Assembly (NCBI RefSeq): GCF_003334765.1 | Contig: NZ_QOWT01000020.1 | DNA from: Escherichia coli | GTDB taxonomy: Bacteria; Pseudomonadota; Gammaproteobacteria; Enterobacterales; Enterobacteriaceae | DNA length: 64,000 nt | Reading direction: 5' to 3' (one strand) | In this document: positions 32,746-33,228 of the stretch, piece by piece | Numbering within the stretch: the stretch's first letter is position 1 | Layout of the letters: the number at the start of each line of letters is the position of its first letter | Program-made: the position numbers and the translations under genes | The notes under the pieces: model-generated | What the model saw: only the letters and a program-made list of their open reading frames with translations | What the model was told of the DNA's origin: nothing | Databases searched by the model: none

Positions 32746-32822
32746 GGCTACGTAGCTCAGTTGGTTAGAGCACATCACTCATAATGATGGGGTCACAGGT
32801 TCGAATCCCGTCGTAGCCACCA
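32746..32822 (+). tRNA. metT: tRNA-Met (elongator, anticodon CAU)
   Basis: 77-nt ggctacgtagctcagttggttagagcac...ctcataat...gtcgtagccacca with encoded CCA. Confidence 0.93.
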
Positions 32823-32831
32823 TCTTTTTTT

Positions 32832-32916
32832 GCGGGAGTGGCGAAATTGGTAGACGCACCAGATTTAGGTTCTGGCGCCGCAAGGTGTGCGAGTTCAAGT
32901 CTCGCCTCCCGCACCA
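32832..32916 (+). tRNA. leuW: tRNA-Leu (anticodon UAG)
   Basis: 85-nt gcgggagtggcgaaattggtagacgcaccagatttaggttctgg...cgcctcccgcacca; long variable arm. Confidence 0.93.
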
Positions 32917-32939
32917 TTCACCAGAAAGCGTTGTACGGA

Positions 32940-33014
32940 TGGGGTATCGCCAAGCGGTAAGGCACCGGTTTTTGATACCGGCATTCCCTGGTTCGAATCC
33001 AGGTACCCCAGCCA
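32940..33014 (+). tRNA. glnU: tRNA-Gln (anticodon UUG)
   Basis: 75-nt tggggtatcgccaagcggtaaggcaccggtttttgataccgg...ccccagcca; could equally be named glnW. Confidence 0.9.
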
Positions 33015-33029
33015 TCGAAGAAACAATCT

Positions 33030-33106
33030 GGCTACGTAGCTCAGTTGGTTAGAGCACATCACTCATAATGATGGGGTCACAGGTTCGAATCCCGTCGTAG
33101 CCACCA
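33030..33106 (+). tRNA. metU: tRNA-Met (elongator, anticodon CAU)
   Basis: Second copy identical to 32746-32822. Confidence 0.93.
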
Positions 33107-33153
33107 AATTCTGAATGTGTCGAATATGTTCGGCAAATTCAAAACCAATTTGT

Positions 33154-33228
33154 TGGGGTATCGCCAAGCGGTAAGGCACCGGATTCTGATTCCGGCATTC
33201 CGAGGTTCGAATCCTCGTACCCCAGCCA
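33154..33228 (+). tRNA. glnV: tRNA-Gln (anticodon CUG)
   Basis: 75-nt tggggtatcgccaagcggtaaggcaccggattctgattccgg...ccccagcca; could equally be named glnX. Confidence 0.9.

Follow-up and report, generated by a model that had tools for sequence, protein, structure and literature searches.

The window, a stretch of 64,000 nucleotides of Escherichia coli DNA, carries exactly five tRNA genes, all on the plus strand, when its whole length is searched with ARAGORN. The Rfam model RF00005 called the same five genes and no others, with scores of 57.6-71.1 bits (gathering threshold 29). The genes lie at 32746-33228 in the order Met-Leu-Gln(UUG)-Met-Gln(CUG), as the first-pass annotation had listed them. 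The first is metT, which encodes an elongator tRNA-Met(CAU) (32746-32822; 71.1 bits), and it is followed by leuW, which encodes tRNA-Leu(UAG) (32832-32916; 57.6 bits). A single tRNA-Gln(UUG) gene occupies 32940-33014 and forms, together with the next 2 nucleotides, a 77-nt tract (32940-33016). The second elongator tRNA-Met(CAU) gene, metU, is located at 33030-33106, and a single tRNA-Gln(CUG) gene at 33154-33228 closes the array; with the 2 nucleotides that precede it, this gene also makes up a 77-nt tract (33152-33228). Both Gln tracts are supported by ARAGORN, Rfam and the alignment with K-12, and the tRNA sequences are identical to those of K-12. In addition, the metT region recurs at metU as a direct repeat of 86 nt, with 97% identity overall and 78 nt in perfect agreement.

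The operon is positioned between asnB and ubiF and is directed away from asnB, as given by the annotation of identical loci and their gap-free mapping onto the window. The flanking genes were transferred from the annotation of strain ECCTRSRTH03, for which positions 1-41401 of the extract align to window 12300-53700 without a gap. Upstream lies asnB (30702-32366, plus strand), encoding asparagine synthase B, whose protein accession, WP_000337077.1, is also found in K-12, and downstream lies ubiF (33382-34557, minus strand). A sigma-70-like promoter, TTGACG-17-CATAAT, was found at 32677-32705 on the plus strand; it matches the consensus at 10 of 12 positions and is identical to the sequence upstream of metT in K-12. 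Given this match and the literature on K-12 (PMC2241853), it presumably acts as the promoter of the metT operon. On the same strand, a rho-independent terminator (33234-33269) consists of a hairpin at 33234-33259, with an 11-bp GC-rich stem and a 4-nt loop, and a T-rich tail, and it is likewise identical to that of K-12. These scans recovered both of the signals that had been proposed earlier, a promoter at about 32677 and a terminator at 33237-33265. In the K-12 metT operon, RNase E removes the terminator and RNase P processing takes place afterwards (PMC2241853). If the locus in the window is expressed as in K-12, its single polycistronic transcript would be a substrate of RNase E and RNase P, and having fewer genes would not change how it works. 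Two other Rfam matches in the window are ordinary for E. coli: the SroC sRNA directly downstream of gltI (41616-41778, plus strand; 174.8 bits) and a marginal ES036/CssrF match upstream of asnB (30378-30420, minus strand; 41.1 bits against a threshold of 37.6).

In K-12 MG1655, seven tRNAs are annotated at the asnB-ubiF locus in the order Met-Leu-Gln-Gln-Met-Gln-Gln, so the first-pass annotation was right about the gene number in K-12. The seven-gene supB-E operon and duplicate tRNA2-Gln genes are reportedly the subject of classical papers (Nakajima et al. 1981; Inokuchi et al. 1979). The window departs from this canonical state, in which each Gln isoacceptor gene has a tandem duplicate, and its locus is an ordinary E. 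coli metT operon with each tandem Gln pair represented once. The window lacks one 109-bp unit and one 112-bp unit of the K-12 sequence and otherwise differs from it by a single SNP, as pairwise alignment over 641 aligned nt showed. The two loci agree in their asnB-ubiF position, the promoter-like site, the terminator and all five tRNA sequences, whereas K-12 has the extra 109-bp (Gln-UUG) and 112-bp (Gln-CUG) units and seven genes. The 109-bp gap comprises one Gln(UUG) gene and the 34-nt glnU-glnW spacer, TTCTTCGAGTAAGCGGTTCACCGCCCGGTTAT, while the 112-bp gap comprises one Gln(CUG) gene and the 37-nt glnV-glnX spacer, ATTTATTCAAGACGCTTACCTTGTAAGTGCACCCA; both spacers are missing from the window.

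The glnU/glnW tandem has a period of 109 and the glnV/glnX tandem a period of 112, and in each the perfect identity extends over exactly 77 nt. Each deletion removes one whole repeat period, is flanked by the long tract of perfect identity and is scarless. On sequence grounds, such unit-exact losses are the product to be expected of recombination between identical direct repeats. A deletion between identical repeats of 77 nt leaves no novel junction, and therefore an inspection of the spacers cannot place the crossover; that of the Gln(UUG) deletion could lie anywhere within 32940-33016. The alignment against K-12 and the spacer check that had been suggested for this locus thus returned the one-unit gap in each pair, while no recombination junction could be located in repeats that are perfect. 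The outcome would be the same for recombination in the cell and for merging by an assembler, so that the sequence alone cannot tell which of the two took place. In de Bruijn graphs with k<=77, 77-nt repeats separated by 32-35 nt of unique sequence appear as short loops, which some assemblers drop.

All of the elongator-Met, Leu(UAG), Gln(UUG) and Gln(CUG) genes of E. coli sit in the metT operon, and the operon is essential (PMC11480407). The earlier proposal that Gln dosage would be halved if this were the sole Gln-tRNA locus therefore holds, as far as nominal dosage is concerned. We searched 5,426 complete RefSeq E. coli genomes with 155-nt probes, each containing one Gln gene and a 40-nt unique anchor on each side, for which 80% coverage can be reached only if the pair is single-copy. 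A single Gln(UUG) gene was found in 71 of the 5,426 genomes and a single Gln(CUG) gene in 152; in the Gln(UUG) search, some minus-strand matches merge with the neighbouring Gln(CUG) match, and on checking these still proved to be full-length single-copy matches. Both pairs were single, as in the five-gene form of the window, in about 16 of the genomes, and a further handful carried still shorter forms of the locus. The five-gene complete genomes contain only 2 Gln-like places per record and hence no compensating Gln copy elsewhere. Extra copies or expansions of Gln tRNA genes also occur: up to 8 places match the Gln-containing probes in some genomes (6 in Origami2-DE3), and 4 of the places are on plasmids. 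One genome of the 5,426 showed no match to the locus.

Four of the roughly 16 five-gene genomes, ECCTRSRTH03 (NZ_CP041110.1), FDAARGOS_1077, CEA106S and STK39-3-E, match the window with 100% identity along the whole 1,401-nt locus, and the same five tRNAs are annotated in them. The five-gene allele is thus already present in public annotated records, and the operon, its duplicates and their recombination are all on record, so nothing here is new in kind. The gln genes do not figure in a 2023 eLife paper on translational redundancy. The double Gln contraction was 8-10 times commoner than would be the case under independence, with 16-21 genomes observed against 2.0 expected (Fisher p<=5.6e-11). 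Many of the variants stem from a few study series (GF, AVS, IPCEC and TUM), which are also sources of non-viable forms of the locus.

To place the window among its relatives, we considered the best 60 genomes for the 25-kb stretch around the locus. In 59 of them this stretch spans 25,221 bp, 221 bp more than in the window, which corresponds to the seven-gene form, and ECCTRSRTH03, which differs from the window at 6-9 sites, was the only colinear match over 25 kb; no record among the 5,426 complete genomes was an exact match to the window. In a SNP matrix of 32,853 shared positions, the genome nearest to the window was the seven-gene BS74R-D, with 3 differences in 32.9 kb, and the derived alleles 20645A and 25474T were common to the window and BS74R-D only. 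The five-gene genomes were more distant, with 6 differences for ECCTRSRTH03, 10 for CEA106S and about 168 each for FDAARGOS_1077 and STK39-3-E. The four genomes therefore share the allele with the window, but not its origin, their flanks being 6 to ~170 SNPs away, and ECCTRSRTH03 and CEA106S are collapsed at other arrays too. A grouping of these four locus-identical genomes into one clade was rejected, as they represent at least two haplotypes ~170 SNPs apart, and each genome is nearer to seven-gene genomes than to the others of the four; seven genes are also found in the closest relatives of the FDAARGOS_1077 haplotype. Wherever the five-gene state occurred on the phylogroup-A-like haplotypes examined, it was a singleton. 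These comparisons indicate that the five-gene state of the window is not inherited and belongs to a scatter of singletons on seven-gene backgrounds. Two structural differences were noted in the surroundings of the locus. K-12 MG1655 has an IS5 between gltI and lnt (K-12 extract 12046-13026), which occurs neither in the window (~40316-40711) nor in the other phylogroup-A-like relatives examined, and CEA106S has an IS1A insertion (extract 32767-34218) with loss of the hscC-djlC-ybeU-ybeT-djlB-ybeR-ybeQ block, which is present in the window.

A private marker made it possible to follow the clone into another assembly. A G-to-C SNP at window 40751, within gltI (40712-41620, plus strand), replaces Ala14 of GltI, which lies in the hydrophobic core of its signal peptide, by Pro (LALALSAG to LALPLSAG), and this A14P change was not present in any of the eight compared genomes. 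An exact-protein look-up revealed the A14P protein on only 6 contigs, which come from NCBI draft assemblies and from four Logan assemblies (runs SRR25039413-SRR25039416); the protein accessions are OWD52504.1, CAM3650478.1, HAH2838361.1 and HAI0796494.1. Because the longest of the contigs with this allele measures 80,362 bp, the window itself is taken to come from a draft assembly. One of the contigs, DABAWR010000018.1 of the draft GCA_012531175.1, encodes GltI A14P and has seven tRNA genes at the locus. To either side of the tRNA locus its identity to the window is 100.000%, and when one unit is removed from each Gln pair, the contig equals window 30933-51620 with 0 mismatches in 20,688 nt. 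The five-gene state was thus not reproduced, since seven genes are present in the only further assembly of this clone to be examined, as well as in the nearest relatives. A seven-gene assembly of the same clone with identical flanks implies that the clone was ancestrally seven-gene. For the proposal that both Gln pairs had collapsed by recombination between repeats, this means that the loss of one unit per pair stands, as expected from such a process, while the seven-gene assembly speaks against a collapse in the living strain.

Evidence that tandem tRNA genes can be lost within assemblies came from other records. In MC1061 (NZ_CP195014.1; CP195014.1) and HS13-1 (NZ_CP026491.1; CP026491.1), both labelled 'complete', only Met(CAT) and Gln(CTG) lie between asnB and ubiF in the former (extract 1947-2145), and the locus of the latter likewise consists of Met and Gln(CUG) (extract 1248-1447). 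No Gln(UUG) or Leu(UAG) gene was found anywhere in either record, and in the locus query GF47, AVS0947 and IPCEC48 appeared to have the same form. Loss of every Gln(UUG) and Leu(UAG) gene should leave a cell non-viable. The MC1061 and HS13-1 loci are therefore artefacts, since all of their Gln(UUG) and Leu(UAG) genes are lost from an operon that is essential (PMC11480407). In these two records, as in the window, identical tandem tRNA genes of the metT operon were lost in whole repeat units; unlike them, the window retains a viable form, whereas in MC1061 and HS13-1 all Gln(UUG) and Leu(UAG) genes are gone and glyVXY, and in MC1061 also alaWX, is collapsed.

The latter observation derives from probes for the collapsed state of two unrelated K-12 tandem arrays, alaWX (K-12 extract 9077-9267) and glyVXY, the second of which was scored for the reduction from three copies to one only. 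The alaWX array was single-copy in 137 of the 5,426 genomes, and glyVXY was down to one copy in 15. MC1061 appeared in both lists and HS13-1 in that of glyVXY, which suggests that tandem tRNA arrays were collapsed genome-wide in these assemblies; ala and gly collapses were also seen in the sister assembly OV2. Single-copy alaW/X was recorded in three separate EDL933 assemblies, in Xuzhou21 and in other O157:H7 strains, suggesting that, besides the artefactual cases, a genuine lineage-specific contraction exists in O157:H7.

Among the five-gene genomes, ECCTRSRTH03 also has a single alaW/X. The five-gene locus was then joined to the ala and gly probes in one chimeric probe, for which 8 places are expected if the ala and gly arrays are normal, and 8 was indeed the modal value. 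Deficits were found in 5 of the 16 five-gene assemblies, namely ECCTRSRTH03 (6 places), CEA106S (7), AVS0543 (7), AVS0967 (7) and GF161 (9, against 10 in its siblings), compared with a background of a few per cent (binomial p ~1e-3 or less). In the other 11 of the 16, no other tandem tRNA array was collapsed. The window itself contains no further tandem tRNA array according to ARAGORN, and the collapse of other arrays was observed in proxy assemblies, in ECCTRSRTH03, CEA106S, MC1061 and HS13-1.

We consider that the five-gene form probably arose in silico, through the collapse of two short tandem repeats during assembly. Several lines of evidence favour this explanation. First, a seven-gene assembly of the same clone exists, with zero differences in the flanks. 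Second, the source of the window appears to be a draft assembly. Third, two independent events would otherwise be needed on a branch of essentially zero length. Fourth, double collapses are in excess and are associated with collapse at several loci. Fifth, artefacts of this kind demonstrably occur, as seen in the collapsed and non-viable loci of other records. In such a collapse, the draft assembly would have merged two tandem repeats, one with a period of 109 bp and one of 112 bp, in each of which the copies agree perfectly over 77 nt, and the strain itself would probably still carry all seven genes. We infer, therefore, that the loss happened in the window's own assembly rather than in the isolate. 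On the other side, the seven-gene sibling assembly may come from another isolate of the clone, and the lack of any other indel between the window and its relatives shows that the window's assembly is not generally poor.

A genuine and very recent double contraction in the isolate, brought about by two RecA-mediated unequal exchanges or replication slippages between the 77-nt Gln repeats, is a possible but less likely alternative. It would leave one gene per Gln isoacceptor and half the dosage, and would be viable since both anticodons remain. The deletions have exactly the form that homologous recombination between direct repeats yields, and recombination in this operon has been documented in vivo: on a Salmonella plasmid, a spontaneous metT x metU exchange was sequenced (PMC5400242). 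That event, from pUST313 to pUST314, is similar in that identical tRNA genes recombined in vivo and the intervening genes were deleted; it differs in that it involved the metT/metU pair on a multicopy plasmid under selection and removed leuW-glnU-glnW rather than single Gln copies (PMC5400242). Moreover, each single contraction is a reproducible natural allele, as the counts of 71 and 152 genomes for Gln(UUG) and Gln(CUG) illustrate. For the enteropathogenic strain E2348/69, two independent assemblies (GCF_000026545.1 and GCF_014117345.2) agree on six genes and a single Gln(CUG), and since it was reproduced in both, this state is credibly biological; it shares with the window the one-unit contraction at glnV/glnX, but only that pair is contracted. 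A single-Gln(UUG) lineage likewise extends across at least 5 unrelated studies (118UI, EcPF18, EcPNK004, CH4796, 1428_w1_hybrid and several AVS isolates). Some of the double forms may also be real, given the 11 of 16 five-gene complete genomes without another collapsed array. However, for the window a genuine contraction would require two rare independent events on a branch along which 20.7 kb show 0 differences to the seven-gene sibling, and the window appears to come from a draft assembly. In addition, the double forms are far over-represented and tied both to multi-locus collapse and to the studies that yielded non-viable loci, and on the haplotypes checked the double state never formed a clade spanning several studies.

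It seems quite improbable that the double contraction is real and that its ~10-fold excess is biological rather than made by assemblers, with both Gln pairs contracting together in the same lineages. Were this so, the excess might reflect, for example, selection for lower Gln-tRNA dosage in slow-growth or nutrient-poor niches or, alternatively, compensation for impaired wobble-U modification; in Salmonella, surplus hypomodified tRNA-Gln(UUG) is toxic (PMC5400242). Finally, there is very little to be said for an inherited lineage marker, by which the window would come from a natural clade that has long carried the five-gene operon: five-gene loci do occur in ~16 complete genomes, and the state is shared within the small groups AVS0543/0790/0967 and GF8/GF161/GF54, but the closest relative, BS74R-D, has seven genes while the five-gene ECCTRSRTH03 and CEA106S are farther away, the same clone is seven-gene in GCA_012531175.1, as are 59 of the best 60 genomes, and an old five-gene lineage is effectively excluded for the window.

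Assembly collapse, as the favoured explanation, has consequences for the use of such data. Counts of tRNA genes at short tandem arrays are unreliable in assemblies, even in those labelled 'complete', and read-level confirmation is needed before biological conclusions are drawn from them; several RefSeq E. coli chromosomes contain metT operons that should not sustain life. The five-gene form in the window is most likely such an assembly collapse or, at best, an ordinary and already catalogued copy-number variant. Events of this type, in which tandem Gln genes contract, are already known, and they carry little biological weight. If the contraction is real, the strain has one gene per Gln isoacceptor, a state that E. 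coli apparently tolerates.
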